From positions 17,763-81,762 of the forward strand of contig CAZSFD010000011.1 of assembly GCA_964606085.1 (NCBI GenBank): a stretch of DNA of 64,000 bases. The letters run 5' to 3'. Below the pieces are notes generated by a model that had not been told where the DNA came from, did not search any database, and worked only from the letters and a program-made list of their open reading frames with translations. This stretch comes from an uncultured Anaerolineaceae bacterium (GTDB lineage Bacteria > Chloroflexota > Anaerolineae > Anaerolineales > UBA4823). The position numbers and the translations under genes were made by a program. Shown piece by piece: positions 254 to 28,637 of this stretch. How positions within the stretch are numbered: position 1 is the first letter of the stretch; each line of letters opens with the position of its first letter.

Positions 254-272
254 GTCATCCTCATTCCATATC

Positions 273-315
273 GAAGGTCGAAAGTCACCGACCTTTGACC
301 TTTGACTTTCGACTT
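273..315. repeat. Heptamer-word hairpin between the giant membrane gene and the next gene
   Basis: GAAGGTC GAAAGTC ... GACCTTT GACCTTT GACTTTC GACTT. The right half is the reverse complement of the left half; arms AAGGTCGAAAGTCA / TGACTTTCGACTT pair with one bulge. Confidence 0.7.
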
Positions 316-318
316 GCC

Positions 319-3300
319 TCACTCCCACGTCTCCAACCGCTTCCGCACCTCCGCCGAAAGCGCCATCACCTGCGCCAGCCGCCGCTCGATCAGAATCGCC
401 AGCGTGACCAGGATGACGCCGCCGACGCCGAAGACCACCCAACGGTTGGCCGAAAGCAGCGGGTCAATCAGTTGTCCGAAGATGTCCAGCATCATGCCCA
501 CCACGCCAATGTAGAGAAAGCGCCGCAGCCGCCGGGCGCTGCCCCACCAGAGGATCAGCAGGCACTCCACGCCCATCAGCAGCGCATAGCCGCCACCGGC
601 ATCGCCCAACGACTGCCAGAAAGCGGAACCGAGCAGCAGCAGCAAGGCCGTCCGGTCAAGCCAGCGCGCCAGCGCCTTACCCGCCTCGCCGCCCACACGC
701 CACTCGACGAAACTGATCGCCAGGATGTAGAGGCCGGTTGGCAGCACATACCACTGAATTTCACGCTGTCCCCACACCAGCAGCCATTCCAGGCTCCATG
801 CCCCCAGCAGCAAGGCCACCGCACCGTAAGCCAGGGCGCGCCAGCGTTCGACCAGCGCCACGGTGAGATAGAAAATGCCTTGCACCGCCAGCACGCCTAC
901 GGTCATCTGCACCAGCCGGATGGTCGCGGCATCCAGCAGCGGTTGACCCAAAATGGCACGCACGATCAGCGCCGAAATGTTCAGGTTCATCACTCCCGCC
1001 AGCAGCAAACTCAACAATGACAGCGCCCAGCCTGCCAGGCACAGGGGCAATTCCCAAATTTGGTAAGGCGAAATTAATTTCGCCTTACCCCAACGCAGCA
1101 GATACCCGCCGACGCCATACGCCGCCGCCATCAGCGAGTACACCCACGGCCACATCAGCGCTTCAGCCTGCCCAAATAACAGCACCTGCCCGGCGGCCAC
1201 GATGCCCCCGGTCAGCGCCACAAACGCCAGGTTTTGCGAATGCCACCAGAAAGCCAGCAGCACTGCCGCCAGCGCGTGCGAAAGCGTTATCCAGGCCGAA
1301 GCGTTCTGCAATTCTGACATCCCCGCCAGTTGCAGCAGGATGACATCGAGCAGTGCCAGCAGGTAGAGCGGGCGTGACCAGCCAACCAGCGCCTTTGCGC
1401 CAATCGGCGTGCCTTCTTTCAGGCGTTCTTCCAGCCACAGCCCGGCCAGCAGCGTCACCCACATCACTGGCGAGAAATACAGCGCCAGGTCAACGATCGT
1501 GCCGTCGCCGCCCAACGATAGCAGGCCGTTCAGCGCCGCCAGTTGCAGCGCCGCCGCGCCCGCCAACAGCCAATAGCGGCGGCGGAACAGGACGATGGCG
1601 ATGCCATAGACCGCCCCCGCCAGCAGCCAATTGACCATGCCGGCGGTGTGGCTTTCCGACATGATCCCGCTCAACGCCGCGCCTGCGAACGCACCCACAT
1701 AAAGTGGAAACGCCCACCACTTCCAGGCGTACTCGGCCAGCACCAGCGGCCAGCGCCACGGCTGCGCCCACGGAAAGGTCTGCCCGCCGCCGCGTTGCCC
1801 GTCCAGCCAGATGGCCGCCATCAGCAGAACACCCGTCCACGGCCACAACGCCAGGCCGGCATCGGCAGAGGGAAGCAGGCCAATCAGACCAGCATAGGAG
1901 GCCAGCGAGAGCAGCGTGGCCGGGGTCAGGAAGATTGGCAGGCGCAGCCAGAAGGCACAGAAAAGGCAGATTAGCGCGGCCCCGCCGTAGCCGATCAGCA
2001 CTCCCAGGTTGTCGAAGCTAGAGGGGGGCAGGGCCAGGGCGGTCAGCGCCAGGGCCGAAATGATCAGCGGGGTGGCGTAGGCGTGTAAGGCGGTGCGCCG
2101 CTCAGCCAGCCAGCGCAGCAGCCAGGCGGTCAGCAAATAGGTGGCGGCCAGGGCCAGCAGACCCCATCCCAGGCGATCCAACTTGACATTCCATTCGTTA
2201 AGGGCAATCACCCAGGCCACCGTCAGGCTGCTCGCTGCGGCGTATAGCCACAATGGAAAAGCAAATTGCCAGGCCGAAAGCGCAAAAACCAACGTACACA
2301 GCAGCATGGCCGCGGCCAGCCCCCAGTTTGTATTGGCGGCCAGCAGCACGCCTGGCAGCAGGATAAGATAGGTCAGCCAGTAAAAAGGCATCCGATAGGC
2401 CGGTTGGCGGCGCGCCAGCCAGCGTCCGATGAACAGGGCGGGGAGGGAGAAGGCCAGCAGCAGCGCGGCATAATGACTTGGTGAAGCCGCGGGAGCGATG
2501 TTGGCGAGGATAGAACATGCCCACACCGGCGTGAGAAATAGCGCCGGATACAAAAATGCCGAACTGGGTGCGGCGCGGTTCATGCGCCAGCCCTGCCAGG
2601 CGTTGGCGGCGTAGAAAATGACGCCGACGCCAATCGTCAGCACCGCCGAATCTGCCGGGCTGACAAAGCCCAACACCAGGATCATCGGCATCACCGTCAG
2701 GGCCAGGTTTTGCAGCGGGGCGGCCAGTTTGCGCAGGCGTGGCCTTGCGCCCCAACCGGAAATCGCCATCAGCAGCGCGCCGATGATCCATTGCAGCAAG
2801 GCCAGCACGGCCCAACCTTCGGCGTGTTCGGCGTAGCCGTAATACGGCCACAGCAGCCAGATCATCAACGACCAGGGCAAATAAGCCAGCCCGCCGGCCA
2901 GGTAAAGAAAGCGCGGCGCGGCCCGCCAGCCGGCATACAAACGGCTGGAGGCCGCCAACAACCCCACCACCAGCCACAACGCCACCACCGCCCAGGTGAT
3001 CGGCGTGCGCCCGCCCAGCAGCACGATGTTGCGAACCAGCGCCAGGCCCACCGTGCCAGCGGCGATCAGCCAGGCCGTGGTCAGCAGCGGCCAGCGAAAG
3101 AGTCTGAGCAGGCGGCGAACGCCGTTCGCAGCCGAATCTGCGCTTTGTGGTCTCGACAAGCTCGACCGACGAACGCTGGTTGAGCTTGTCGAAACCGAGC
3201 CTGTCGAAACCAGTGAGACATTCTGAAGGCGAGTTAAACCACGTTCGATCAGGATATACCCCCACGCCCCCAGGGCGGCCAAGGCCGTCGAACGCCCCGT

Positions 3301-6138
3301 TCCCTGGCTGAAGGCCAACGCCGCCAGCCCGCACGATGCCGCGCCGAGCCAGGCCGCCAGGTAGGCGTCGAAGCGGCTGCGTTGCCAGAGGGCGCGCAGC
3401 ACAAAGGCCAGCCCCAAGAGCAGCGTCGTCCCTGCCGCCCACAGCAGATGGGCATCCAGAATTTTCCAGTGGCGCAGGGCAAAATTTGCCAGGAAGAAGA
3501 AGTTGAGCGCCAGCGCCGCCGGGCCAAGCAGGTAAAGCGAGCGATACAACGGCAGCAGGAAGGCCCGCGGCCAGTCACGTTTGCATTCGAGAAACTGGCC
3601 GATCAACAGATAGGCCAACGAAACCAGCGCCAGCACAATCGGCTGCGCCTCGGCGCGCAGGTCGGCCAGGTCGAGCGCCAGCGCCAGGCCGAGCGGCAAG
3701 AGCAGGCTGGCCGGCCATAGCAGCCACGCCTGCTTCTGCACGACCGCCGCGGTGAAATAGAAGGCCGCCAGCCCCAGGCTGAACGCGGCTCCCCAATTTT
3801 GCGGCTGCCCTGCCAATAGCAGCACCCCCAACGCTGCGCAAACATTGGCCGACCAATGCCACGGTCGGCGGTAGGCGGCCCGGACGCGCCCCAGCCATGC
3901 GCCCCAGCCGAGCAGCGCCCAGGCCAGCAGCAGCGCCACAAGCGGCAGGGGCAGCCAACTGGGGTGGCCGTTCAGCCAGGTTAGCCACGCCCAAATAGGC
4001 AGCGAGAAAGCTGCCAGCCATTGGAAGATCGTTGGTTGAGTGGCACGTTGATCGGGCCTGTCGAGACCCAAAGTGTTGGTCGAAACCCGTTTCCCCACCC
4101 AAAAGCGTCCTTCATGCGTCAGCAGCGCCAGCCAGCCATTGATTGCCGTCCATTGGCCCAGGGCATAGGCCAGCAGGTTGCGCTCGAAAAAGACGAGTGG
4201 CGGCATCAGCGCCAGCAGCGCCGCCAACCATCCTGAAACGAACCACTCCCGGCGGCTTGTCCGCACCCCTGCTGCCACGAACCCCACTGCCAGCAGCGCC
4301 CACGCCAGCCCAACCTGCCCCCAGGCCAGGCCGCGCCCGGCCACCAATCCGGCGCTGCCCGTCAACAGCAGCAGATTGCCCAGGTAGATCAGCCGCGGCT
4401 GCTGCCACCAGCGCGCCGCCAGAAAAACGGTGACGGCCAAAAACGGGTGAACGACAGCGGCGGCGTTGACATCGCCCAACGCCCACAGCGCCGGGATGAT
4501 CACGAGCAGGGGGCCTATGGCAGCGGCGGTCTCCGCTGAAAATGTGCGTTTCTCGCCAGCGATAGGCCGGCCAAATTCGAGGTAGGGCAGCGCAAGCAAC
4601 GCCGGGCCGAGGGCGTACCATGCCCAGCCCAGGCCAACCTGCGGGAAGATGTATGCTTCGCTGATCAGCACAGCAATGGGGTAGATGAGCGCGGCAGCCA
4701 GTGAGAAGGTGCGGCTGTTGGCCCGCCCGGCGGCGAAGCTGAACAGCAGGCCGCCGAGCCACCAGGTCAGCGCCAGGGGCAGGCGGAAGGCCACGTCGGC
4801 CTGCCAGCGTGTGAGCGCCAGGGCCAGGTTCCAGGGCAGCAGCACCGCCGCGGCCGTCAAGGCCAGCAGCCACAACGGCGAGGCCAGCACCTTCCAGCGT
4901 TCTGGCCCGCGGCGGAAGAGCAGTTCGCCGGCCAATCCGACCGCCAACGTATAAACGGTCAGCGCCGTCTGCCACCAGGAAACATCCACGCCGAGTAATT
5001 GCAGGCTGGCGCAAAGTAAACTGCCCCCGGCCAGCCCCACCAAATAGCCGAAAAACCCGGCCTGGATCAGGTAAGCGGTGAGCGTATAGGCCGCCAGGCA
5101 GAGCAGCGAAGCGCCCCACCACACTTCAGGCCAGCGTTCGGGCGGGAATCCCCCCGACAGGTAAATGGCGTACACTTCGAGCGGCACCAGCAGCGAGGCG
5201 AAAGCGCTCAGGGCAATGCCCGACCCGCGTAATTTGAGCTGCGTGCGCACATACCAGCCCAGGCCGTAGAAAATGGCCGTGAACAGGGTCAACACGCCCA
5301 CCTGCACCAGCGGTGGGAAGGCGTTCCAATTCCACACGACCAGCGAAACGGCCGCGGCCACCAGCAGCGCCACGCCCAGGAAGAGCAGCGCGTGCAGCGT
5401 GCGCTCAGAGACGAGCGTATCCCACAGGCGATCCCACGTCCAGGGCTGGCGCGGCGCTGCGGCCGGGCGGGCGGGGGTGGGGGTTTGGATTTTGGCTGGA
5501 GGAGATTGGGCTGGCGTGTGTGCAGGGCGGGGCGACGGGGCGGCTACGGCCACGGGTTTTCCGCTCAGTCGGTTTTCCATGCTGTCGAGCGATTGCTGAA
5601 TGGTCTGGCGGGCGCTGTTCAGCGCGTCGCCTTCGGCCAGCCGCCCCTGGGCGATCCATTCGTCCAGGCTGGTGATGAGATAGCGGTAACAGGCCAGGGT
5701 TAGCAGGTTTAGGTTTGTGGTGGGTTCGGGCGTGGGTGGGGCGTCTTGCAGGCGTTGGCGCAGATCGCCGATCTGGCTGGTGAGTTCGTGGGCGATTTCC
5801 GCCGGGATGTGGATGCCGCGCGGCTGGAAGAAGGCCGCGAAGGTGCGCAGGGCATACTCGCGCTGCCTGATCGCCAGGCGTACTTCGGCGGCCTCGCTTT
5901 CACTGAGCGTGGGGGGGCGCAGCCCCAACTGGCGTTCGAGGTCGCGGCGTTGGCGGTCGTAGCGTTGGTGCAGGTCGCCGCGTGACTTGATCGGCACATC
6001 TACCCAGCCGTTAATTTCCCCCAACAAAAAGATGATGTGCGAAAGGGCTTCGACCGGGCCCGCCTCCCCCGTAAATTGGCAGGTTGGGCAGGCTGAACCG
6101 ATTTGGTAGGTTGGCTCGTGGCACTTTGGGCAGTTCAT
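319..6138 (-). CDS. Giant polytopic membrane protein (1939 aa) with N-terminal zinc ribbon; function unknown
   Basis: One uninterrupted ORF with SD GGGGGAGGG about 10 nt upstream of the ATG. The N-terminus MNCPKCHEPTYQIGSACPTCQF has a CxxC...CxxC pattern. It is followed by ~230 aa of soluble helical sequence, a P/A-rich linker, then ~1700 aa of near-continuous W/L/A/G-rich hydrophobic segments. Confidence 0.8.
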   Translation of the reverse strand: MNCPKCHEPTYQIGSACPTCQFTGEAGPVEALSHIIFLLGEINGWVDVPIKSRGDLHQRYDRQRRDLERQLGLRPPTLSESEAAEVRLAIRQREYALRTFAAFFQPRGIHIPAEIAHELTSQIGDLRQRLQDAPPTPEPTTNLNLLTLACYRYLITSLDEWIAQGRLAEGDALNSARQTIQQSLDSMENRLSGKPVAVAAPSPRPAHTPAQSPPAKIQTPTPARPAAAPRQPWTWDRLWDTLVSERTLHALLFLGVALLVAAAVSLVVWNWNAFPPLVQVGVLTLFTAIFYGLGWYVRTQLKLRGSGIALSAFASLLVPLEVYAIYLSGGFPPERWPEVWWGASLLCLAAYTLTAYLIQAGFFGYLVGLAGGSLLCASLQLLGVDVSWWQTALTVYTLAVGLAGELLFRRGPERWKVLASPLWLLALTAAAVLLPWNLALALTRWQADVAFRLPLALTWWLGGLLFSFAAGRANSRTFSLAAALIYPIAVLISEAYIFPQVGLGWAWYALGPALLALPYLEFGRPIAGEKRTFSAETAAAIGPLLVIIPALWALGDVNAAAVVHPFLAVTVFLAARWWQQPRLIYLGNLLLLTGSAGLVAGRGLAWGQVGLAWALLAVGFVAAGVRTSRREWFVSGWLAALLALMPPLVFFERNLLAYALGQWTAINGWLALLTHEGRFWVGKRVSTNTLGLDRPDQRATQPTIFQWLAAFSLPIWAWLTWLNGHPSWLPLPLVALLLAWALLGWGAWLGRVRAAYRRPWHWSANVCAALGVLLLAGQPQNWGAAFSLGLAAFYFTAAVVQKQAWLLWPASLLLPLGLALALDLADLRAEAQPIVLALVSLAYLLIGQFLECKRDWPRAFLLPLYRSLYLLGPAALALNFFFLANFALRHWKILDAHLLWAAGTTLLLGLAFVLRALWQRSRFDAYLAAWLGAASCGLAALAFSQGTGRSTALAALGAWGYILIERGLTRLQNVSLVSTGSVSTSSTSVRRSSLSRPQSADSAANGVRRLLRLFRWPLLTTAWLIAAGTVGLALVRNIVLLGGRTPITWAVVALWLVVGLLAASSRLYAGWRAAPRFLYLAGGLAYLPWSLMIWLLWPYYGYAEHAEGWAVLALLQWIIGALLMAISGWGARPRLRKLAAPLQNLALTVMPMILVLGFVSPADSAVLTIGVGVIFYAANAWQGWRMNRAAPSSAFLYPALFLTPVWACSILANIAPAASPSHYAALLLAFSLPALFIGRWLARRQPAYRMPFYWLTYLILLPGVLLAANTNWGLAAAMLLCTLVFALSAWQFAFPLWLYAAASSLTVAWVIALNEWNVKLDRLGWGLLALAATYLLTAWLLRWLAERRTALHAYATPLIISALALTALALPPSSFDNLGVLIGYGGAALICLFCAFWLRLPIFLTPATLLSLASYAGLIGLLPSADAGLALWPWTGVLLMAAIWLDGQRGGGQTFPWAQPWRWPLVLAEYAWKWWAFPLYVGAFAGAALSGIMSESHTAGMVNWLLAGAVYGIAIVLFRRRYWLLAGAAALQLAALNGLLSLGGDGTIVDLALYFSPVMWVTLLAGLWLEERLKEGTPIGAKALVGWSRPLYLLALLDVILLQLAGMSELQNASAWITLSHALAAVLLAFWWHSQNLAFVALTGGIVAAGQVLLFGQAEALMWPWVYSLMAAAYGVGGYLLRWGKAKLISPYQIWELPLCLAGWALSLLSLLLAGVMNLNISALIVRAILGQPLLDAATIRLVQMTVGVLAVQGIFYLTVALVERWRALAYGAVALLLGAWSLEWLLVWGQREIQWYVLPTGLYILAISFVEWRVGGEAGKALARWLDRTALLLLLGSAFWQSLGDAGGGYALLMGVECLLILWWGSARRLRRFLYIGVVGMMLDIFGQLIDPLLSANRWVVFGVGGVILVTLAILIERRLAQVMALSAEVRKRLETWE

Positions 6139-16340: not shown

Positions 16341-17189
16341 ATGTTTTCTTCGCTCTCGCCTGAACCGGTAGACTACCTGGTGATCGGCCATCTCACCTGT
16401 GATGTGACCCCGAACGGCTTGCAGGTGGGTGGTACGGCCTCCTATTCAGCACTGACGGCGCGAGCGTTAGGCTTGCGGGTAGGGATTGTGACCGCCTGGG
16501 CCAACGAGATTTCATTGGAACCGTTGAGCGGTATCCCGGTTGCCAGCTTTCCCACCGAAAAAAGCACCACATTTGAGAACCTCTATAACCCGGCTGGGCG
16601 GATTCAAATCCTCCACCATGTTGCTCCGCGGTTGGAATACTTCATGATTCCCTCGGCCTGGCGCAGCCCGGAGATCGTTCACCTGGGTCCGGTGGCGCAG
16701 GAAGTACAGCCATCGCTGGCGCGTCACTTTCCCAATGCCTTGCTGGCTGCCACGCCGCAAGGCTGGCTGCGCCAATGGGATGCCAACGGGCGCGTCTCGC
16801 CGGGCGAGTGGCCCGAAGCGACGGCGGTTTTGCCGCAATTGGGCGCCGCCGTGATCAGCGTGGAAGATGTGCAAGGCGACGAAACTCGCATCGAGGAGAT
16901 GGCGGCTTGCTGTCCGATATTTGTGGTGACCGAAGGGGCCTGTGGGGCGCGGCTCTATTGGCATGGCGATGTGCGCCGTTTCCGCGCGCCTGAAATGGAC
17001 ACGCTGGATGCCACCGGCGCTGGCGACATCTTTGCCGCCTGTTTCTTCACCCGCCTATATCTCACCCGCGACCCATGGGAGGCGGCCCGCTTTGCCACGC
17101 AATTGGCCTCGCTCTCGGTGACGCGGGCCGGCTTACAGGGCATTCCAACGCCGCAGGAAATCGAATCTATGACTGTTGAGGTGTTGTAG
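16341..17189 (+). CDS. PfkB-family carbohydrate kinase
   Basis: Ribokinase-like fold motifs, including DATGAGDIFAACFF near the C-terminus. Confidence 0.8.
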   Translation: MFSSLSPEPVDYLVIGHLTCDVTPNGLQVGGTASYSALTARALGLRVGIVTAWANEISLEPLSGIPVASFPTEKSTTFENLYNPAGRIQILHHVAPRLEYFMIPSAWRSPEIVHLGPVAQEVQPSLARHFPNALLAATPQGWLRQWDANGRVSPGEWPEATAVLPQLGAAVISVEDVQGDETRIEEMAACCPIFVVTEGACGARLYWHGDVRRFRAPEMDTLDATGAGDIFAACFFTRLYLTRDPWEAARFATQLASLSVTRAGLQGIPTPQEIESMTVEVL

Positions 17190-17191
17190 GG

Positions 17192-17971
17192 ATGGGAAAA
17201 ATTTACACACTCGTCAACCAAAAGGGTGGGGTGGGAAAAACCACCACGGCGATCAACCTGGGGGCTTACCTGGCCTACTTTGGACAGCGTGTGCTGCTGA
17301 TTGACCTCGACCCGCAGGCCAACGCTACCTCATGCCTGGGTGTGGATAAGCGCACGGTCAAAGGCGGCACGTATGAAGCGCTGATCGGTTCGGCGGCCGC
17401 ATCCAGCCTGGTGCTGCTCAACCCACGGCTCAAGCTCTCGCTGCTGCCCTCCACGCAAGGCTTGGCCGGCGCTGAGGTGGAATTGGTGAGTGAGATGGCG
17501 CGCGAAACCCGCCTGCGCGAAGCGATCAAAACACTGTCTGATCGTTATGATTACATTCTGATAGATTGCCCCCCCTCCTTGGGTTTGCTGACGCTCAATG
17601 GCCTGGTGGCGGCGCAGCATGGCATCCTCATCCCGGTGCAGTGCGAGTATCTGGCACTCGAAGGCATTGGTCTGCTCACCAATACCATTCAGCGCGTACG
17701 CCAGGTGCTTTTCCCTGAATTGGCCATCCGCGGCGTGGTGATGACGATGTTCGACCACAACAACCTGAGCAAAGATGTCGTCAGCGAAGTGCAGCGTCAC
17801 TTCCCATCCCAGGTTTTCCAGACCGTCATTCCCCGCAACGTGCGCCTGGCCGAAGCGCCCTCGTTTGGACAGCCCATCTCCGTTTATGCGCCCACGTCCA
17901 CCGGCGCACAGGCTTATGAAGCCCTGGCGCGCGAAGTGCTGGCGGGCGATGGAATAACGATCCATGTCTAA
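17192..17971 (+). CDS. parA: Chromosome partitioning ATPase ParA/Soj
   Basis: Deviant Walker A NQKGGVGKTTTAINL; full-length ParA. Confidence 0.9.
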   Translation: MGKIYTLVNQKGGVGKTTTAINLGAYLAYFGQRVLLIDLDPQANATSCLGVDKRTVKGGTYEALIGSAAASSLVLLNPRLKLSLLPSTQGLAGAEVELVSEMARETRLREAIKTLSDRYDYILIDCPPSLGLLTLNGLVAAQHGILIPVQCEYLALEGIGLLTNTIQRVRQVLFPELAIRGVVMTMFDHNNLSKDVVSEVQRHFPSQVFQTVIPRNVRLAEAPSFGQPISVYAPTSTGAQAYEALAREVLAGDGITIHV

Positions 17972-18824
17972 ACGCCCCGGCCTCGGACGAGGCCTCGACT
18001 CCCTGATCCCTGCGGGTGAAGCATCGGCATTGCCGGCCAGCAATATCACCCAACTGCCGGTCAGCGCCATCACGCGCAACCCCAGCCAACCGCGCACGCA
18101 TTTCGACCCGAAGGATTTGGATGAACTGGCCGCTTCCATTCGGGAACATGGCATCATCCAACCACTGATCGTCACGCACGGCCCGACGCCCGAATTGTAC
18201 ACGTTGATTGCTGGCGAGCGGCGCTTGCTGGCGGCGCGCCAGGCCGGGCTGACCACCGTTCCCGTCATCGTACGGGATGCCACCCCGCAAGATTTACTCG
18301 AACTGGCGCTGGTCGAAAACGTGCAGCGCGCCGACCTGGGGGCGCTCGAAACCGCCGAAGCCTTCCGCCACCTGGCCGATGATTTCAAGCTGACCCACGA
18401 ACAGATCGCCGTCCGCGTGGGCAAGAGTCGTGTGGCCGTCTCGAATACATTGCGTCTGCTCGACCTGCCGGAGGCCATCCGCAAAGCCCTGGCCAACGGC
18501 ATGATCACCGAAGGCCACGCCCGCGCCCTGCTGGGGCTGAAGACGCCGCAATCGCAGGCCGCCGCCCTCGACCGCATCCTCAACGAAGACCTCAACGTGC
18601 GCCAGACCGAAGAACTGGTGCGCCGCCTGAGCGGCGAAAAGCGTCCCGGCAAGCCGCGTCCCGCCCCGCCGCCCGAACTGACCGACCTCGAAGAACGCCT
18701 GATGCAAAGCCTGCACACCAAAGTCAACCTTAAGCGCAGCCGCAAGGGGGGGACGATGGTGATCCACTATTACTCGGATGAAGAGTTGGATACGTTAGTC
18801 AGTCGGATTACGGGGGATGCGTAA
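17964..18824 (+). CDS. parB: Chromosome partitioning protein ParB/Spo0J
   Basis: GLGRGLDSLIP, GERRLLAARQAG and an HTH region. It overlaps the parA stop by 8 nt. Confidence 0.9.
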   Translation: MSKRPGLGRGLDSLIPAGEASALPASNITQLPVSAITRNPSQPRTHFDPKDLDELAASIREHGIIQPLIVTHGPTPELYTLIAGERRLLAARQAGLTTVPVIVRDATPQDLLELALVENVQRADLGALETAEAFRHLADDFKLTHEQIAVRVGKSRVAVSNTLRLLDLPEAIRKALANGMITEGHARALLGLKTPQSQAAALDRILNEDLNVRQTEELVRRLSGEKRPGKPRPAPPPELTDLEERLMQSLHTKVNLKRSRKGGTMVIHYYSDEELDTLVSRITGDA

Positions 18825-18850
18825 CGAAACAGCATGACCGGCGAATTCTT

Positions 18851-19768
18851 ATGAATGATTTCCGAAAACTCCCCCGTTTTGCCCAATACACCTGGTTTGT
18901 CCTCCTCTACAACCTGATCGTCATCTTGTGGGGGGCGTATGTGCGCGCCACCGGCGCCGGCGCCGGCTGTGGCAGCCATTGGCCGCTGTGCAATGGCGAG
19001 ATCATCCCGCGCGCCCCGCAGATCGAGACCGTGATCGAATTCACCCACCGCCTGAGCAGCGGCCTGGCGTTGATTTTGATCCTCGTGCTGCTGATCTGGG
19101 CGTGGCGGGCATTCCCGACGGGCCACCGCGTGCGCAAGGGCGCAACAGCCTGCGCGGTGTTGATCTTGCTCGAAGCGCTGTTTGGGGCGGGGCTGGTGCT
19201 GTTCGAGTGGGTGGCGCAGGATGCCTCGTTGGGACGGGTGATTTCGATGCCTGTTCACCTCGTGGTGACCTTTGTGCTGCTGGCGGCCCTCTCGCTCACC
19301 GGGTGGTGGGCGGCGGGCGGCAATGGACTGCGTTTGCAGGGCCGCGGCTGGCCGGCCTGGGGCTGGCTGCTGGGGCTGGCCGGCGTCCTCGTCATCGGCA
19401 TGACCGGGGCGGTGACCGCCCTCGGCGACACGCTTTTCCCTGCTGAGACACTGGCCGAAGGCTTGCAGCAAGACCTCGACCCGCAGGCGCACTTCCTCCT
19501 TCGCCTACGCGTCTGGCATCCGCTCATTTCGGTGGGGGTGGGCTTTTTCCTGCTCTTCTACACCTATTTCTTCGGCCACACGCACGCCAGCCCGGCAGTG
19601 CGCTGGTTCTCGAAGGCCCTGTTCGCCCTGGTGATTGTGCAGTGGGTGGCCGGGATGGTCAACATCGCTTTGCTGGCCCCGGTGTGGATGCAACTGCTGC
19701 ACCTGCTGCTGGCCGACCTGACCTGGATCGCCCTGGCTTTGTTGGGCGCAGCGGCCTTTGAAGGATGA
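18851..19768 (+). CDS. ctaA: Heme A synthase (COX15/CtaA family)
   Basis: Eight hydrophobic segments, GAGAGCGSHWPLCNG and conserved His in helices (FTHR, VHL, WHP). Confidence 0.8.
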   Translation: MNDFRKLPRFAQYTWFVLLYNLIVILWGAYVRATGAGAGCGSHWPLCNGEIIPRAPQIETVIEFTHRLSSGLALILILVLLIWAWRAFPTGHRVRKGATACAVLILLEALFGAGLVLFEWVAQDASLGRVISMPVHLVVTFVLLAALSLTGWWAAGGNGLRLQGRGWPAWGWLLGLAGVLVIGMTGAVTALGDTLFPAETLAEGLQQDLDPQAHFLLRLRVWHPLISVGVGFFLLFYTYFFGHTHASPAVRWFSKALFALVIVQWVAGMVNIALLAPVWMQLLHLLLADLTWIALALLGAAAFEG

Positions 19769-20472
19769 AGCGCTACTCCACCCTGCTCTTCGACGCCGAC
19801 GATACGCTGTTCGATTACAACCGCGCCGAAGCCGATGCCCTCCAAATAACCTTCGCGCAGCATGGCATCGCCTGGCAGCCTGATTTCCTCGCCACGTACC
19901 GCCAGATCAACCGCGAAATGTGGCAACAGCTCGAACAAGGCCGCCTCACCCCGCAAACGATCAACCACCAACGCTTTGTGCGCCTGCTGCAAACGCTCCA
20001 GCTTGACCCGCCCAGCGAAACTTTCGCAACCGGCTACCTTGCCAATATCGCCGCCTGCGCCGCTTTGCTGGAGGGCGCGCTGGATGTGGTGACGACCCTC
20101 GCGCCGCATTACCGCCTCGCCATCCTCACCAACGGCCTCCAAGCCGTGCAGTATTCCCGCCTGGCGCGTTCACCCCTGGCAGCCTACATCCCCCCCTCGC
20201 ATTTGATCATCTCCGAAGAAGTTGGTGCAGCCAAGCCCGACCCGGCCATCTTCGCCATCGCCCTCGAACGCCTGGGCAGCCCGCCAAAGGATGAAGTCCT
20301 GATGATCGGCGACAGCCTGTCCTCCGATATCCGCGGCGCGGCCAACGCTGGCCTGGATAGCTGCTGGTACAACCCCGCGGCTGCCCTGCGCCCCGCCGAC
20401 CTGCCGATCACCCACGAAATCCGCCATCTTTGCGACATCGTTCCCATCCTCATCCATTCACCCAACCGCTAA
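19765..20472 (+). CDS. HAD-superfamily hydrolase (YjjG-like nucleotidase subfamily)
   Basis: LLFDADDTLFDY motif I, ILTNG, and GDSLSSDIRGAANAG motif IV. Confidence 0.8.
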   Translation: MKRYSTLLFDADDTLFDYNRAEADALQITFAQHGIAWQPDFLATYRQINREMWQQLEQGRLTPQTINHQRFVRLLQTLQLDPPSETFATGYLANIAACAALLEGALDVVTTLAPHYRLAILTNGLQAVQYSRLARSPLAAYIPPSHLIISEEVGAAKPDPAIFAIALERLGSPPKDEVLMIGDSLSSDIRGAANAGLDSCWYNPAAALRPADLPITHEIRHLCDIVPILIHSPNR

Positions 20473-20489
20473 ATTACCCATCTTTGGAT

Positions 20490-22040
20490 ATGCTGACCAT
20501 TCATAACGCTCGTATCTACACCTTTGACCCTGCCTGCCCCATCGCCACCACGATCACCCTTCATGGTGGGCGGGTTGTTGCGCTCAACCGGCCTGCTGCC
20601 GATGGCGAACACCGCGATTCTGGCGGCAAGATCATCCTGCCCGGCCTGACCGACGCCCACTTTCACCTCGAACATTACGCCCTCGGTCTGCAAAAGGTGA
20701 ACTGCGAGACAAGCACCCTCGATGAATGTCTGCGCGGCGTGTCCGACCGTGCCGCCATTACCCCGCCCGGCGAGTGGATTCTCGGCCACGGCTGGAATCA
20801 GAACAACTGGGGTGGCGCTTTCCCCACTGCCGCCCAACTCGATGCCGTTGCCTCGCACCACCCGGTTTACCTGACCGCCAAATCGCTGCATGCCGGTTGG
20901 GCCAACAGCGCTGCCCTCAGGCTGGCCGGCATCACCGACCGTACGCCCGACCCCGCCGATGGGCAGATCGGGCGCAGCGCCGATGGCAGGCCAAACGGGA
21001 TGCTCTTCGAGAGCGCCATGCAGTTGGTGAACGCGGCCATCCCCGCGCCCTCGGAGGAGCAGGTGGCCGAGGCCATTCGGGCGGCCTTGCCCACGCTGTG
21101 GCAGGTGGGTCTCACCGGCGTCCACGATTTCGACCGTGCGCGCTGCTTTGCCGCTTTGCAGCGCTTACATGCGCATAGCCAGTTGAAGCTGCGCGTGGTC
21201 AAGAGCATTCCACTGGACGATTTGCCGCACGCCGCGGCCCTGGGGCTGCGTTCGGGCTTTGGCGATGACTGGCTGCGCCTGGGGGCGGTGAAGGTCTTTG
21301 CTGATGGGGCCTTGGGGCCGCGCACGGCGGCCATGCTGCAACCCTACGAGGGCGAACCCGATAACCGCGGCATGTTGTTCCTCGATGCCGAAGAGCTTTT
21401 CGAGCGGGGTAAGTTGGCCGTTGCCAGCGGTTTCCCCCTGGCCGTCCATGCCATTGGCGACCGTGCCAACCACGAGGTGTTGAACGCCTTCGAGCAGCTT
21501 CGCCCGCTTTCTGGCAATTTGCGCCACCGTATCGAACACGTCCAATTGATCCATCCCGATGATGCGGCGCGCCTGGCGCAACTGGGCGTGATCGCCTCGA
21601 TGCAGCCGATCCACGCCACCTCCGATATGGCGATGGCCGACCGGCACTGGGGCGCACGCGTGGCTCTTGCGTATGCCTGGAAGACCCAACTTGACGCCGG
21701 GGCGGTGCTGGCCTTCGGCTCAGATGCGCCGGTGGAAGCGCCCAACCCGTGGTGGGGCATCTATGCCGCGGTCACGCGCCGCCGTCACGATGGCGCGCCC
21801 GGCCCAGAAGGGTGGATTCCGCAGCAGCGCCTGGCCGTGGCAGATGCTATTCGTGGGTTTACCACGGGTGCGGCGTTTGCGGCGGGTCTGGATGGCCGCC
21901 ACGGCCAGTTATCTCCCGCTTCTCTGGCCGATTTACTCGTCCTCGATGTCGATCCTTTTGCCTGCGATCTGGGTGTGCTTAAAGACATCCGCCCCCGGGC
22001 GACGATGATCGGGGGCGAATGGGTGGTGGATGACCTGTAG
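20490..22040 (+). CDS. Amidohydrolase-family metal-dependent hydrolase (YtcJ-like)
   Basis: GLTDAHFHLEH (HxH), AVHAIGD, HVQLI, GSDAPVE. Start at ATG 20490 (MLTIHNARIY). Confidence 0.8.
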   Translation: MLTIHNARIYTFDPACPIATTITLHGGRVVALNRPAADGEHRDSGGKIILPGLTDAHFHLEHYALGLQKVNCETSTLDECLRGVSDRAAITPPGEWILGHGWNQNNWGGAFPTAAQLDAVASHHPVYLTAKSLHAGWANSAALRLAGITDRTPDPADGQIGRSADGRPNGMLFESAMQLVNAAIPAPSEEQVAEAIRAALPTLWQVGLTGVHDFDRARCFAALQRLHAHSQLKLRVVKSIPLDDLPHAAALGLRSGFGDDWLRLGAVKVFADGALGPRTAAMLQPYEGEPDNRGMLFLDAEELFERGKLAVASGFPLAVHAIGDRANHEVLNAFEQLRPLSGNLRHRIEHVQLIHPDDAARLAQLGVIASMQPIHATSDMAMADRHWGARVALAYAWKTQLDAGAVLAFGSDAPVEAPNPWWGIYAAVTRRRHDGAPGPEGWIPQQRLAVADAIRGFTTGAAFAAGLDGRHGQLSPASLADLLVLDVDPFACDLGVLKDIRPRATMIGGEWVVDDL

Positions 22041-22048
22041 CTGGCGGG

Positions 22049-23746
22049 TTATGGGGTGTTTTCGACCTGTGTGTTTTGCAGGGGCAGGGTATCTTTCAGG
22101 TCGGCGTAGACGACCAGCCGTTTGAGATAGCGCTTGAATTCGTCGTTCCAGTCGGTGCAGGTGATCAGGCTGATTTGGGGGTTTGTGGTGGGGTGGGTCA
22201 CGGCTAAATCGCCTTCTTCAACGACAACTTGTTCGCGTACGGTGTAGGTGTACAGGTTTTCTGCAGTGTAGACCTGGATGACATCGCCGGTTTTGAGTTG
22301 GTCGAGATAGCGGAAGGGGCCGTTTTCGCCGACCAGGGTGACATGCCCGGCCAGCGCTGTGTTGCTGCCCAACCCCGGCCAGGAGGTATTGCCCAGCCAG
22401 GCGATCTCCTGTTTCAGGCCGGCGATCATCCAGCTTTCGCCGTCGAAAGGCACGTATTTGACGATAGTATCCACGTTTAGGGCGGGAATGGCCAGACGGG
22501 TGACGGGGCTGGTATCGAGGACGATGCCGGGTTCTGTTTCGGGCAGGGCGGTGGGGGAGGGGATGGGAAAATCGGGCAGTGCGCTGATTTCGGTGGGGGC
22601 AGTGAAGATGTACCCGGTGGTGTCTTCGGTGGGGAAGATGGGGGCGATGGCATAGCCGGCCATTTTTTCGGCGAGGTGGGTTGGGGCAATGGCGATGGGG
22701 AGGCGCGCCTCGGGCGAGCGCCAGAACCACCCACTGCCGGCCGCACCAACGACTGCCCCGGCGAGCAGTAAGGCGACTCCGGCAAGAAGGTAGCGGCCAA
22801 TTTGGCTTTGTTCTTGTTGGCGCGCCCACAGGGCATACCAGATGGTGAAGAAGCCGGCCAGCGCCGCCGCGCCTGCCAGGAAGAGCAGCGACCAGTCTAT
22901 GGGGTGGGTGGGATTTTCAAGCGGTTGGAGGCCGGTGCCAGGCAGCCCAGAGACGACGACGCGGTAGTTGGCGGTGGCGGTGCGGGTGTTGTTGGGGGCG
23001 TAGGTAAGGCTGATGCTGTTAACCAGGTTGACGGTTGCGTTGGCGGTGCTGTTGACGCTGGTTTCGATGGTGACGGTGACAATTTTACTCGGCAAGATTT
23101 CGCCGATCAGCACTGTTACGGCATGGTTCTGGCGGTTGATTGTTCCCTGGGTTGTTTTGGTGTTGCTGGTGATATCTATGGTGGTGGGGAAGGAATCGGT
23201 CAGGATGACATCTTGTGCGGGGGCCAGGCCGTTATTGGTGATTTTGACGATGAAGGTGATCTTTTGCCCGACGCGCGCTTCTGAGGGGTTGACGGTGATG
23301 GCGATGGTGGGGTTGGGGGTGATTGTTCCGGTGGCGGTGGGGGTGGGAGGGGTGCCGGTGGTTGTGCGGGTGGCCGTGGGTGTGGGTGTGGCGGTATCGG
23401 GTATTTGTTTGAAGATGAGCGGTAAGAATTTTCGAATGGCTGTGGCCGTGTGTGTGGGCGTTGCCGTGGGGGTGGCGGTCGTTGTGGCCGTCTGGGTGGC
23501 TGTGCCTGTTTCGGTGGGGGTGCTGGTAGATGTGGCCGTTCCGGTGGTGGTACCCGTGGATGTGGCGGTTTCGGTGGCCGTTGCCGTCGGCGTGCTGGTT
23601 TCGGTGGGGGTGGGGGTATCTGTGGCTGGTTCGGGTTGGCTGACGGCGCTGAATTGGGGGATGGCCGCGGCTGCGAACCAAAGCGCCAGGCCGAAGATCA
23701 CCACGAATAAAAAACGGGCAATGCGTTGATGATTAAGGGGAAGCAT
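22049..23746 (-). CDS. Sortase-substrate fusion: signal peptide, T/P-rich linker, DUF11-like domain, LPGTG + TM + basic tail, second TM, sortase catalytic domain
   Basis: LPGTG is encoded at 22931-22945 (CTG CCT GGC ACC GGC). It is followed by WSLLFLAGAAALAGFFTIWYALWA RQQEQ. The C-terminal domain has LAGH, SLITC (TLxTC-type Cys) and RLVV. Confidence 0.8.
   Translation of the reverse strand: MLPLNHQRIARFLFVVIFGLALWFAAAAIPQFSAVSQPEPATDTPTPTETSTPTATATETATSTGTTTGTATSTSTPTETGTATQTATTTATPTATPTHTATAIRKFLPLIFKQIPDTATPTPTATRTTTGTPPTPTATGTITPNPTIAITVNPSEARVGQKITFIVKITNNGLAPAQDVILTDSFPTTIDITSNTKTTQGTINRQNHAVTVLIGEILPSKIVTVTIETSVNSTANATVNLVNSISLTYAPNNTRTATANYRVVVSGLPGTGLQPLENPTHPIDWSLLFLAGAAALAGFFTIWYALWARQQEQSQIGRYLLAGVALLLAGAVVGAAGSGWFWRSPEARLPIAIAPTHLAEKMAGYAIAPIFPTEDTTGYIFTAPTEISALPDFPIPSPTALPETEPGIVLDTSPVTRLAIPALNVDTIVKYVPFDGESWMIAGLKQEIAWLGNTSWPGLGSNTALAGHVTLVGENGPFRYLDQLKTGDVIQVYTAENLYTYTVREQVVVEEGDLAVTHPTTNPQISLITCTDWNDEFKRYLKRLVVYADLKDTLPLQNTQVENTP
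23318..23626 (-). repeat. Thr/Pro/Ala low-complexity coding repeat (linker of the sortase-fusion protein)
   Basis: TDTPTPTETSTPTATATETATSTGTTTGTATSTSTPTETGTATQTATTTATPTATPTHTA...TPTPTATRTTTGTPPTPTATG. Confidence 0.8.
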
Positions 23747-25310: not shown

Positions 25311-28300
25311 ATGACCCCCACTCCCTACCCCTCCCCCGTCCACATCTGGCAAGAACTTGTCACCATCCCCACCTACCCCGTCCCCTCGCCCGACCCCAAC
25401 CCGATGTTCTTCGAGAAGCGCGTCAACCAGGGGGCCAGCGGGCGCATCTACCCCAACCCGCTCACCGACCATGTCAACCACGAGACGAAGGAAGACCGCG
25501 CCTACCAGGCCGTCTTCCTGGAAAACGAATACATCCAGATCATGGTCATGCCGCAGTTTGGCGGGCGCATTCACGCTGCCCTCGACAAAACCAACGGCTA
25601 CGACTTCGTCTATCGCCAAAACGTGGTCAAACCAGCATTGATTGGCCTGTTCGGCTCGTGGGTTTCTGGCGGCATGGAGTTCAACTGGCCGCTGCACCAC
25701 CGCCCATCCACCTTTATGCCGGTGGAATACACCATCGAGCATGGCGAAGATGGCTCGGCCACGGTCTGGCTCAGCGAACACGAGCCGATGAACCGCATGA
25801 AAGGCATGTTGGGCGTGTGCGTCTACCCCGGCAAAGCCTATTTCGAACTCAAAGTGCAGCTATACAACCGCACGCCGCTGCCGCAGCCCTTCCTGTGGTG
25901 GATCAACTGTGCTGTGCGTGTCAACGAGAATTATCAGATCATCTTCCCGCCCGATGTCGAGAGCGTCACCTTCCACTCACGCGCCGACATGGCCTCCTAC
26001 CCCATCGCTCGCCAGTTCTTCGCCGGCTGCGACTGGCGCGACGGTGTGGACATTTCCTTCCCCAACAACGTCGGCCCGGCCACCTCGTACTTCGCCAACC
26101 CGTCTGGCTATGATTTCTTCGGCGGGTTCGACCACGGCAAGCAGGGCGGCATCATCCATGTGGCCAACCACCACGTCTCGCCGGGCAAAAAATGCTTCAC
26201 CTGGGGCACCGGCGATTTCGGCACCGCCTGGCAAGGTTCGCTCACCGACGCCGACGGCCCTTACATCGAACTGATGGCCTCCAGCTACTCCGACAACCAA
26301 CCCGATTTTTCCTGGCTGCAGCCCTACGAAACCAAGCGCTTCAGCCACCTCTGGTACCCCATCCAGCAGATCGGCTCGGTCAAAAACGCCAACCGCCAAC
26401 TCGCCGTCAACCTCACCGACGACTTCGTCGGCGTCTGCGCCACCGAAATCATCCCCGAAGCCCGCATCCTCGTCACCGCCACCTCCCCCCACGGCGACGA
26501 AATCACCCTCTTCGACTGGCAAGGCGACCTCATCCCCGGCCAACCCCTCACCGCCCACCAGACCTTCGACCTTCGACCTGCAACCTTGCGCGTCCTCGAC
26601 TCCTCCGGCTCCGAGTTAATCTCCTACACCCCGCAGCCTCGCCGTGACGATCCCCTGCCTCCCACCGCCAAACCGCCCACGCTGCCGCACAAAATTGACA
26701 ACCTCGAAGAACTCTACCTCACCGGCCTGCACGTCGAGCAATATCTCCATTTCAGCCTCGACCCCGCCCCCTATTGGGAACGCGCCCTCACGCTCGATTC
26801 CGGCGACTCGCGCAGCAACACCGCCCTCGGACGCCTGAAACTGCGCCGCGGCGATTTTGCCGCCGCCGAAGCGCACTTCCGCGCCGCCATCGCCACCCTC
26901 ACGCGCTACAATTTCAACCCCTACGACGGCGAACCCTATTACCAGCTTGGCCTGGCGTTGGTTTACCAGGCGCGCTACGCCGAAGCCTACGACGCCTTCT
27001 ACAAGGGTATCTGGTCGTATGCCTGGCGCAGCGCTGGCTATTACGCCCTCGCCCAAATTGACGTGCGCCGCGGCGACTACGCCCGCGCTCTCGACCACAT
27101 CGAACGCGCTCTCGTCACCAACGCCCATCACAACCAGGCGCGCGCCCTCAAAGCCGCCGTGCTGCGCCGCATGGGGCGCGTCGAAGTGGCCCTGCAAACC
27201 GCCCGCGCCGCTCTGGCGCTCGACCCGCTCAACCTGTGGGCGCGCGCTGAGATGGTGCTGGCGTTGGATGAACTGGGTGATCCTGCCGATTTCCAGCAAT
27301 CTGAGTTAACCCGCCTGCTGCGCGGCAGCGCCCAAAACTACCTCGACCTGGCCCTCGATTACGGCAACAGCGCCCTCTACCCCGAAGCGTTGGATGTGCT
27401 GTTGAGCTTCCTCGAACTCGAAAACGCCAGCGAAGCTCCCCAGGCCGGGGCCAGTTATCCGATGATCCCCTACGCCCTCGGCTACTTCGCCACCCGCGTC
27501 GGCGACACGGCTTCGGCGCTCGAATGGTTCCGGCAGGCCGCCAGCCAACCACCCGATTGGTGCTTCCCGCACCGCCTCGAAGAGCAGATCATCCTTGAAG
27601 CCGCCCGCGCCGCCAACCCGTCGGATGGGCGCGCCGCCTATTACCTGGGCAACCTCTATTACGATAAGAAGCAGTACGAAAAAGCCATCGCTGCCTGGGA
27701 AACCGCCACGCACCTCGAACCGGGCTTCGCCACCGCCTGGCGCAACCTGAGCATCGCGCGCTACAACAAGCGCGGCGACAAAGATGGGGCCAAACTTGCT
27801 TACCAGCAGGCCCTCGTTGCCAACCCACACGACCCGCGCCAGATCATGGAGCACGACCAACTGGCCCGCCGCCTGGGGGCTGCCCCCGCCGACCGCATCT
27901 TCGCCTTCGAGCATCACCTGGCCGAAGTGGCCCAACGCGACGACCTCACCGTTGACCTGGCCGCTCTCTACAACCAGACCGGCCAGCCGCAAAAAGCGCT
28001 CGACCTGCTGCTCAATCACATTTTCCACCCCTGGGAAGGCGGCGAAGGCCAGGCGGCCACGCAGTATTCGCTGGCGCACCTGTTACTTGGCGAAGCGGCC
28101 ATCGGCACCAACCCGCACGCCGCCCTCGAACACTTCGCCGCCGCCCGCCAGCATCCCGCCAACCTGGGCGTGGGGCGCGCCATGCAGGGTGTCCATGCCG
28201 TGGTGGATTTCCACACCGCGCAAGCTTATGCCGCCCTCGGTCAGCCCGATGTTGCTGCTGAACACTACCGCAAGGTTGCCGATGACGAGGCTGCTGCTCC

Positions 28301-28637
28301 CGCCTGGCAGAATTTCTCCCCGTTGACCTATTACGCTGCCCTGGCCCTGCGTCAACTGGGCGATGAAGCCGCCGCGCAGTCCAAATTGCAAGCCCTCCTC
28401 GACCACGCCACCGAACAACTCAACGCCGACGATCAAGGCGGCTTCTATACATCTATCCCTGCCACTGTCATCTTCGAGGAAGAACCCGGCCGCGCCGCCA
28501 AAATAACCAATCACTACCTGATCGGCCTGGCGCACAAGGGCCTGGGTCACGCCGCCGAAGCGCGTGCCGCTTTCGAGGCTGTGCTGGCCCTCGACCCGCA
28601 CCATTGGGAAGCGCAGCGCGAGATGAAATCGCTTTAA
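25311..28637 (+). CDS. DUF5107-like N-terminal domain protein with C-terminal TPR repeats (1108 aa)
   Basis: The N-terminus PTYPVPSPDPNPMFFEKRVNQGASGRIYPNP... is typical of DUF5107 proteins. The C-terminal ~650 aa has repeated TPR-like A/L/Y patterns. Confidence 0.65.
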   Translation: MTPTPYPSPVHIWQELVTIPTYPVPSPDPNPMFFEKRVNQGASGRIYPNPLTDHVNHETKEDRAYQAVFLENEYIQIMVMPQFGGRIHAALDKTNGYDFVYRQNVVKPALIGLFGSWVSGGMEFNWPLHHRPSTFMPVEYTIEHGEDGSATVWLSEHEPMNRMKGMLGVCVYPGKAYFELKVQLYNRTPLPQPFLWWINCAVRVNENYQIIFPPDVESVTFHSRADMASYPIARQFFAGCDWRDGVDISFPNNVGPATSYFANPSGYDFFGGFDHGKQGGIIHVANHHVSPGKKCFTWGTGDFGTAWQGSLTDADGPYIELMASSYSDNQPDFSWLQPYETKRFSHLWYPIQQIGSVKNANRQLAVNLTDDFVGVCATEIIPEARILVTATSPHGDEITLFDWQGDLIPGQPLTAHQTFDLRPATLRVLDSSGSELISYTPQPRRDDPLPPTAKPPTLPHKIDNLEELYLTGLHVEQYLHFSLDPAPYWERALTLDSGDSRSNTALGRLKLRRGDFAAAEAHFRAAIATLTRYNFNPYDGEPYYQLGLALVYQARYAEAYDAFYKGIWSYAWRSAGYYALAQIDVRRGDYARALDHIERALVTNAHHNQARALKAAVLRRMGRVEVALQTARAALALDPLNLWARAEMVLALDELGDPADFQQSELTRLLRGSAQNYLDLALDYGNSALYPEALDVLLSFLELENASEAPQAGASYPMIPYALGYFATRVGDTASALEWFRQAASQPPDWCFPHRLEEQIILEAARAANPSDGRAAYYLGNLYYDKKQYEKAIAAWETATHLEPGFATAWRNLSIARYNKRGDKDGAKLAYQQALVANPHDPRQIMEHDQLARRLGAAPADRIFAFEHHLAEVAQRDDLTVDLAALYNQTGQPQKALDLLLNHIFHPWEGGEGQAATQYSLAHLLLGEAAIGTNPHAALEHFAAARQHPANLGVGRAMQGVHAVVDFHTAQAYAALGQPDVAAEHYRKVADDEAAAPAWQNFSPLTYYAALALRQLGDEAAAQSKLQALLDHATEQLNADDQGGFYTSIPATVIFEEEPGRAAKITNHYLIGLAHKGLGHAAEARAAFEAVLALDPHHWEAQREMKSL
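26561..26588 (+). repeat. Four in-frame heptamer units inside the DUF5107 gene
   Basis: GACCTTC GACCTTC GACCTGC AACCTTG, the same ACCTTY word family as 25261-25302 and 273-315. Confidence 0.7.

Follow-up and report, generated by a model that had tools for sequence, protein, structure and literature searches.

A single gene in a 64,000-nucleotide (nt) stretch of DNA from an uncultured Anaerolineaceae bacterium (contig CAZSFD010000011.1, positions 17,763 to 81,762; the whole stretch is called the window here) was confirmed to encode, within one polypeptide of 565 amino acids (aa), both a substrate-like module and a sortase whose catalytic residues are intact. In normal sortase systems, one enzyme acts on separately encoded substrates. 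Comparison of this protein with its relatives supports the view that a sortase/LPXTG system has been collapsed into one conserved polypeptide in Anaerolineae-type Chloroflexota, and we propose, with a probability of roughly 0.6, that the gene is a self-contained sortase sorting cassette. The proposal is carried by the anatomy of the gene, the topological logic of its membrane segments, the joint conservation of sorting motif and active site, the occurrence of the fusion throughout the clade, and the lack of any other substrate nearby.

The gene lies on the minus strand, where an unbroken ATG-to-stop frame at 22049..23746 bears out the single 565-codon open reading frame (ORF) of a first-pass annotation made from the letters of this stretch; the plus-strand frame of the same span is riddled with stops. 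The parts which that annotation had listed, namely a signal peptide, a Thr/Pro linker of about 100 aa, a DUF11-like domain, a second transmembrane (TM) segment and a sortase domain, were each recovered by composition, hydropathy or Pfam search (Table 1). The layout is that of a substrate precursor and a sortase precursor placed end to end, with the charged tail of the substrate doubling as the basic N-terminus of the sortase. The sorting signal had also been described as a textbook one. This holds for its elements, since the LPGTG is followed by a hydrophobic segment (TM1) and then by the positively charged stretch RQQEQSQIGR, but not for its setting: the signal is internal, with 293 residues (TM2, tether and sortase) C-terminal of the motif, which is therefore not at the extreme C-terminus of the precursor; its spacer is longer; and the curated anchor models miss it.

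On the minus strand the codons CTG CCT GGC ACC GGC, at 22945..22931, spell L268-P-G-T-G272. Conservation of this motif was measured in two alignments, one of 93 homologs with 39-58% identity to the query and one of 96 sequences that omitted the three homologs with variant motifs. In the first, T271 and G272 never vary, and conservation at L268 and P269 is at least 90%; H468, C530 and R543 are invariant as well, so that the predicted scissile Thr-Gly is as invariant as the catalytic His/Cys/Arg triad. In the second, the L, P, T and G of the motif are all invariant. Mean column conservation is 0.93 for LPxTG and 0.72 for the sortase domain, against 0.42 for the spacer, 0.42 for TM1, 0.32 for the loop, 0.41 for TM2 and 0.36 for the tether. 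Across 68 loci the motif is written with 6 Leu, 4 Pro, 4 Thr and 4 Gly synonymous codons; the DNA of the motif has turned over and the peptide has not, which points to purifying selection on the motif itself.

LPxTG stands directly ahead of paired hydrophobic segments in 117 of the best 120 homologs, and nearly all of the 120 have PF04203 in the same protein, the combination that had been named as the one to search for. In the three remaining homologs of this set, the position is taken by IPATG, LAGTG or a degenerate QGGTG. The variants found at the motif position (LPxTG with several residues at x, IPATG and LAGTG) are known sortase motifs, with one degenerate sequence beside them. The bare pentapeptide also turns up elsewhere in the window by chance, as LPPTG at 53608 and LPGTG at 1032, in neither case with a downstream TM segment. 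The motif alone is not significant; its significance comes from context and conservation, and a chance LPxTG match was rejected on the strength of the motif-specific conservation and the synonymous codon turnover.

Homologs of the whole fusion were found readily. A search of 5.8 billion proteins returned 388 matches, and nearly all of the best 120 (37-60% identity) carry both PF01345, the DUF11 family now named CLIPPER, and PF04203, the sortase family. An exhaustive HMMER search of 1.84 billion cluster representatives placed 191 clusters (50% identity) at E <= 1e-30; several CLIPPER repeats are common among them, and the sortase is always C-terminal. Public annotation of the family reads just 'sortase'. 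A relative is encoded at 99 loci in the species genomes of GTDB, of which the best 80 are all in Chloroflexota metagenome-assembled genomes (MAGs), mostly Anaerolineales or Anaerolineae. When all ORFs at these 80 loci were scanned with hidden Markov models (HMMs) for the three segments, the rule was a single ORF with 1-4 CLIPPER domains, the LPxTG-TM-loop-TM unit and a sortase. Where the first-pass annotation had allowed that orthologs might prove to be two genes, the one-ORF fusion, present in at least 120 protein clusters, is the rule instead and is, judging by these loci, obligate across the Anaerolineae-type Chloroflexota clade.

About a dozen of the orthologous loci are interrupted (L040, L043, L056, L061, L067, L068, L070-L073, L075 and L082). 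In these the frame changes and homology continues past the break, and the positions of the breaks are scattered: in CLIPPER, in the spacer before TM1 (L072), in TM2 (L071), after TM2 (L040) or in the tether. Such a break would deprive either the substrate half or the sortase half of its TM segment, and thus the interrupted copies do not amount to a working two-gene form. None of the interrupted loci, which were inspected individually, has a stop behind the basic tail and then a TM-sortase gene with a start of its own. All but L068 come from one series of MAGs ('MFD...bin') with megabase contigs, probably long-read assemblies prone to insertions and deletions; the junctions are not obviously homopolymeric, so that a few could be real pseudogenes rather than sequencing errors. 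Among short sortase-only matches, P0227 and P0238 are contig-edge fragments, the latter beginning exactly at LPGTG, and P0236 is an extra paralog downstream of a complete fusion.

These observations bear on the suggestion that the fusion is an artefact, whether of a lost stop codon, a frameshift, a chimeric assembly or a chance LPGTG. The interrupted loci and the chance pentapeptides in the window could be read that way, yet the 565-aa gene is identical in two independent assemblies (JGI metagenome 3300043177 and the Logan assembly of SRR12686701), which together with one-ORF orthologs in at least 99 species genomes rules out the lost stop that had been raised as a concern. Interrupted copies shift frame at different positions, leave non-functional halves and, with one exception, belong to one MAG series; the motif, moreover, is as conserved as the active site. 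The probability of an artefact is negligible.

HMM match, catalytic triad and fold all identify the C-terminal domain as a sortase, and its activity is predicted on that basis. It matches Pfam PF04203 at aa 418-550 (E = 1.6e-23; 83.2 bits versus a cut-off of 26.6) and the general family model TIGR01076 at 43.7 bits versus 39.35. In the full-length AlphaFold2 (AF2) model, which was built on the 93-sequence alignment, the domain has a predicted local distance difference test score (pLDDT) of 75-97, and in a truncated model of aa 258-565 the score is 90-98. Foldseek paired it with class A and class E sortase structures at probability 1.00 and with target-normalised TM-scores up to 0.84; the best match by sequence in the PDB, 4D70 (E = 1.3e-9), is distant. 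A membrane anchor lies N-terminal to the domain, in the form of TM2, which comes after the basic loop and before the tether. Just ahead of the domain, the conserved pre-sortase motif LPDFPIPSP has a pLDDT of about 85 in the truncated model; it may be a lid or a pseudo-substrate, or else form a structural extension of the N-terminus. It begins with 'LP', as does the substrate motif.

The geometry of the membrane region was measured in 207 family members. The spacer from LPxTG to TM1 is 12 aa in the query and has a family median of 12 residues, often beginning ELPL, with a Pro two residues past the motif about 80% conserved. The loop between TM1 and TM2 has a median of 10 residues; most members carry 3-4 Lys/Arg there, and its net charge averages +2.9 in the family but is only +1 in the query. 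TM2 and the sortase domain are separated by a median of 75 residues. In the full-length model, helices at 285-310 and 316-337 (pLDDT 86-96) pack as a TM hairpin, and the linker and the tether both fall below a pLDDT of 50. The positive-inside rule would place the basic loop inside and orient TM2 accordingly, giving a probable topology with the passenger outside, TM1 running from out to in, the loop in the cytoplasm, TM2 running from in to out, and the sortase outside. In the truncated model the LPGTG segment has a pLDDT of about 85 (predicted TM-score, 0.75) and forms an isolated beta-bridge at G272, which suggests that the segment may contact the folded part of its own chain.

An ordered LPGTG segment would also fit a motif that is never cleaved, serving as a tethered pseudo-substrate or regulatory plug, or simply as part of an intact surface protein with three TM segments. 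A precedent exists in class C sortases, in which an internal lid fills the active site. We consider this very unlikely, since a plug has no need of a signal peptide, a stalk and a folded passenger that is exported, since the scissile T-G is invariant together with the full triad, which favours turnover, and since the motif, TM segment and basic loop mirror those of true substrates.

At the N-terminal end, the family shares a signal-peptidase-type site: 89/93 homologs have Ala at position -1, and position -3 is occupied by a small residue. In the query, with A-V-S ahead of Q37, cleavage probably occurs after aa 36. The linker (aa 37-142) contains 46 Thr and 15 Pro in 106 aa, or 58% Thr+Pro, and is likely disordered, given its low pLDDT. 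Beneath it the DNA carries imperfect tandem repeats (23350-23392 and 23463-23577) with periods of 18, 24 and 30 nt, and these repeats of 18-30 nt suggest that the length of the stalk can vary. The linker is broken by a hydrophobic island, IRKFLPLIFKQIP, at 23399-23437 on the minus strand (aa 104-116). A similar motif, [FY]LP[LI][IV]x[KRQ], occurs 20-30 aa past the signal peptide in about 25 of the 207 family members (as FLPIIFK, YLPLVLR or YLPLLYQ, for example), and this may be a second signal, located N-terminally, by which secreted proteins of Chloroflexota are processed or sorted.

The folded part of the passenger matches PF01345 at aa 148-255 (E = 1.2e-11; 45.4 bits versus a cut-off of 24.6) and NCBIfam TIGR01451 at 34.3 bits versus 24, and is modelled as an all-beta domain with a pLDDT of 94-98. 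A recent survey (PMC12617251) describes CLIPPER/DUF11 as a stalk domain resembling CnaA that in many, though not all, members has an isopeptide bond, formed within the chain between Lys and Asn with a catalytic Asp. In the homolog alignment, passenger columns D184, N232 and N243 reach about 90% conservation; the column richest in Lys reaches 60%, swaps with Arg, and is R205 in the query. An isopeptide bond in this passenger is thus doubtful, since the Asp and Asn candidates are conserved and the Lys is not. A sequence search of the PDB with the CLIPPER domain found no match on which isopeptide residues could be mapped. Across homologs the passenger is modular, with 1-4 CLIPPER repeats and sometimes fn3 (PF00041), CARDB (PF07705), PF24595, PF25549 or CLIPPER_2 (PF24346) domains (P0084, P0085, P0100, P0105 and P0111 are among these variants), and the LPxTG-TM-loop-TM-sortase cassette remains constant while the passenger varies.

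Anaerolineae hosts are filamentous, and a passenger of this kind could be imagined as the subunit of a covalent fibre or sheath, polymerised as in a pilus by linking the LPGT carboxyl of one passenger to the next through an amine, either of a Lys or of the N-terminus. Pilins and fibrillar adhesins contain stalk domains of this CnaA-like type, homologs have 1-4 repeats of it, and each monomer would supply its own polymerase. The passenger, however, offers no conserved pilin-motif Lys, for which reason a pilin-type polymerisation system was rejected; the score with the class C sortase model is 35.8 bits, where the cut-off is 160, and the mature N-terminus is variable. Polymerisation is accordingly held to be highly improbable.

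The self-contained cassette that we favour would operate as follows. The Sec pathway would export the N-terminal part, and signal peptidase would remove aa 1-36. TM1 would stop transfer, the basic loop would stay in the cytoplasm, and TM2 would re-export the C-terminal part, so that CLIPPER with its LPGTG and the sortase domain would both sit on the outer face, linked by the TM hairpin. From its flexible tether of about 75 residues, the sortase (Cys530/His468/Arg543) would attack T271-G272 of its own or a neighbouring chain; attack on its own chain is the probable first turnover, because the local concentration would be very high. The resulting thioacyl intermediate would bear the Thr/Pro stalk and the CLIPPER domain, and an amino-group nucleophile of the envelope would resolve it, leaving the module covalently on the cell wall. 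By analogy with characterised housekeeping sortases, the acceptor may be a peptidoglycan precursor or cross-bridge. A two-TM sortase stub starting at Gly272 would remain in the membrane. Self-processing of this kind is consistent with the equal invariance of Thr-Gly and triad, with the lack of a substrate nearby, with the placement of LPGTG in the truncated model, and with the behaviour of the engineered fusions discussed below. The earlier idea of a one-shot, stoichiometric device found no specific support, because the two-TM stub would keep an intact active site; some genomes, in addition, have tandem fusions or a stand-alone sortase.

The acyl-enzyme might also be resolved by water, in which case the cut between LPGT and G would release the CLIPPER module into a sheath, matrix or the medium. 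Sortases hydrolyse LPXTG slowly when no nucleophile is present, and engineered fusions serve precisely as self-cleaving release modules. To our knowledge, however, all characterised sortases act as transpeptidases in vivo, and a plain secreted protein needs neither a TM hairpin nor a sortase. A long Thr/Pro stalk with a stalk-type CLIPPER domain is typical of wall-anchored fibrillar proteins (PMC12617251). Such self-shedding therefore appears quite unlikely.

Several points weigh against the self-contained cassette. The curated sortase class models all score below their cut-offs (class E, 54.9/160; class F, 51.6/166; class D, 40.7/165; class C, 35.8/160; GN, 33.5/158), so that the attempt to place the enzyme in a known class failed; no class A or class B NCBIfam model was listed for the protein at E <= 1. 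Neither of the models for classical anchors, Pfam Gram_pos_anchor (PF00746) and NCBIfam TIGR01167, matched the full protein or the isolated signal fragment, and the TM/basic part of one homolog fragment gave only sub-threshold scores (14.6 bits versus 20 and 12.5 versus 15.9, respectively); the signal is internal and has a longer spacer than the curated models expect, which would explain why they miss it. In the full-length AF2 model the LPGTG segment has a pLDDT of only 55-72. At one locus (L084, 3-2519) a complete fusion is followed, 135 nt on, by a stand-alone sortase paralog with a lipoprotein-like N-terminus. Finally, substrates or a housekeeping sortase may possibly be encoded elsewhere in these genomes, as the survey covered the surroundings of the fusion genes.

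The last two of these points would favour a reading in which two functions are merely joined, with another housekeeping sortase cutting the LPxTG, or the fused sortase serving mainly substrates encoded elsewhere; fusion would then do no more than co-express and co-localise the two parts. The stand-alone sortase at L084 belongs to the same subfamily, tandem fusion paralogs exist, and the stub left by processing, its sortase still intact, could act in trans. Yet each tandem paralog (at L064, 1-3262, and L066, 2-3522) has retained its own LPxTG and its own sortase with its catalytic Cys; tandem fusion genes also occur at L061 (193-5225), where the upstream copy is the frame-interrupted one. Motif and triad, as described, are equally conserved. 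Moreover, in about 0.96 megabases (Mb) around the fusion genes of the 80 genomes no unfused CLIPPER-LPxTG-TM protein was found, and neither there nor in the window was there a classical C-terminal LPXTG substrate. A mere joining of functions is judged to be unlikely.

In several respects the fusion resembles the canonical class A and class E sortases and their LPXTG substrates. It has the sortase fold, the His/Cys/Arg triad and an outward-facing, membrane-anchored catalytic domain on the one hand, and a signal peptide, passenger, LPxTG, hydrophobic segment and basic stretch on the other. LAGTG is a class E-type motif, and one ortholog of the fusion carries it. Unlike the canonical systems, the fusion is one polypeptide with an internal signal and a median spacer of 12 aa, and it supplies one enzyme per substrate molecule rather than one enzyme for many. 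There is a parallel in gene arrangement with dedicated pairs of adjacent genes, a sortase and its single substrate, such as those of the class GN 'marine sortases' (TIGR03784) and other one-enzyme-one-target pairs. The fusion likewise provides a private sortase for one cognate LPXTG protein at the same locus, but in a single ORF, and with 33.5 bits against a cut-off of 158 it is not a member of TIGR03784.

Like sortase-assembled pili, the fusion has a CnaA-like stalk domain (PMC12617251) followed by LPxTG; it differs from class C pili in lacking the conserved pilin-type Lys and a separate operon of pilins and sortase, and in scoring far below the class C cut-off. A conceptual parallel can be drawn with the autotransporters of type V secretion, which also combine a passenger and its processing machinery in one cleaved polypeptide, if the fusion is indeed cleaved. 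Fold, envelope type and chemistry are unrelated, a beta-barrel translocator in one case and a cysteine transpeptidase in the other, and there is no homology.

Precedent for the chemistry comes from engineering. As reported in PMC3614425, which cites Mao 2004 (PMID 15294306), engineered SrtA-LPXTG fusions cleave intramolecularly at Thr-Gly, which shows in principle that the chemistry proposed here works within one chain. Those tags are artificial and soluble, with the enzyme N-terminal to the site, and are made for hydrolytic release. The present fusion, in contrast, is natural and embedded in the membrane by a TM hairpin; its substrate part precedes the enzyme, and selection has conserved it. 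A full-text literature search, whose coverage excluded most papers in subscription journals, found engineered sortase-substrate fusions only and no description of a natural one. The survey in PMC12617251 sought sortase motifs in the last 50 residues only; surveys of that design would miss these fusions, in which the signal is internal.

A natural fusion of enzyme and substrate kept throughout a clade would be a new organisation of the sortase system, and as a single expressible gene it allows a test of cis versus trans sortase catalysis. Databases label these proteins 'sortase' only, which leaves an annotation gap. The envelope architecture of Chloroflexota has long been debated, and how surface proteins are anchored in this phylum has hardly been studied; a core gene near the origin that serves covalent anchoring would reveal what decorates Anaerolineae filaments. 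A self-processing sortase from nature, its tether and spacer already optimised, might also serve as a self-cleaving or self-ligating module for engineering. A stronger form of the proposal, which we regard as tentative and rather unlikely, is that self-sorting is obligately in cis and effectively single-turnover, each polypeptide cutting its own LPxTG and placing one stalk-plus-CLIPPER unit on the envelope, and that the CLIPPER module is the sole sortase substrate in these genomes, so that a core gene next to parAB builds a covalent surface layer or sheath on filamentous Anaerolineae. If true, this would establish stoichiometric enzyme-substrate anchoring as a principle new for sortases, since we know of no sortase that works in this way, and would provide direct genetic evidence of covalent wall anchoring of proteins in Chloroflexota.

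Table 1. Features of the substrate-sortase fusion gene, with positions in the window
Feature	Position	Strand	Basis or remark
Whole gene, substrate-sortase fusion, 565 aa	22049..23746	minus	ATG at 23746, stop codon 22049-22051; ORF list, Pfam CLIPPER/DUF11 and Sortase
Signal peptide, aa 1-36 (MLPLNHQRIAR, hydrophobic core, A-V-S/Q)	23639..23746	minus	Basic N-region, hydrophobic helix 6-27
Thr/Pro-rich linker, aa 37-142, with hydrophobic island IRKFLPLIFKQIP, aa 104-116	23321..23638	minus	Composition
CLIPPER (DUF11) beta-sandwich passenger domain, aa 143-262	22961..23320	minus	Pfam PF01345, NCBIfam TIGR01451, AF2
LPGTG sortase recognition motif, aa 268-272, predicted scissile bond T271/G272	22931..22945	minus	DNA reading, conservation
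Spacer LQPLENPTHPID, aa 273-284 (family consensus ELPL...)	22895..22930	minus	Family geometry
TM1, aa 285-308 (W285-A308), WSLLFLAGAAALAGFFTIWYALWA, sorting-signal stop-transfer segment	22823..22894	minus	Hydropathy, AF2 helix 285-310
Basic loop RQQEQSQIGR, aa 309-318, probably cytoplasmic by the positive-inside rule	22793..22822	minus	
TM2, aa 319-342 (Y319-W342), YLLAGVALLLAGAVVGAAGSGWFW, sortase signal-anchor	22721..22792	minus	Hydropathy, AF2 helix 316-337
Flexible tether, aa 343-386, Pro-rich, low complexity, 44 residues	22589..22720	minus	pLDDT below 50
Pre-sortase motif LPDFPIPSP, aa 390-398 (family LPD[YF]PIP[TS]P)	22553..22579	minus	Invariant P391, P396, P398
Sortase catalytic domain with N-terminal extension, aa 387-555	22082..22588	minus	Pfam PF04203, Foldseek
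Catalytic His468 (LAGH)	22343..22345	minus	Invariant in 93/93 homologs; codon verified
Catalytic Cys530 (SLITC), sole Cys of the protein	22157..22159	minus	Invariant; codon verified
Catalytic Arg543 (RLVV)	22118..22120	minus	Invariant; codon verified

The fusion gene stands as a monocistronic unit in the window, convergent with an amidohydrolase gene on one side and divergent from small ORFs on the other. Only 8 nt separate the end of the amidohydrolase ORF (22040) from the fusion stop codon, too little for each gene to have a terminator of its own. Weak hairpins resembling terminators overlap the ends of both genes; promoter and terminator scans at the fusion gene were uninformative. When the neighbours at 81 loci were clustered, conserved genes were found for an amidohydrolase (67/81 loci), ParB (67/81), ParA (65/81) and a PfkB-family kinase (61/81). 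This synteny points to an origin-proximal, vertically inherited core locus rather than an island. The neighbourhood occupies 16341-22040 in the window and was compared with loci L003-L082; YidC-like and Jag-like genes, named by eye from N-terminal sequences, lie further out at some of them.

Upstream of the fusion gene, at 25311-28637 on the plus strand, is a gene for an 1108-aa protein with DUF5107 and many tetratricopeptide (TPR) repeats. It is followed by ABC transporter and two-component genes; no link of this region to the fusion gene was seen. At about 1-5900 of the window, the minus strand holds a stop-to-stop open frame of 1945 aa with many hydrophobic, TM-like stretches.

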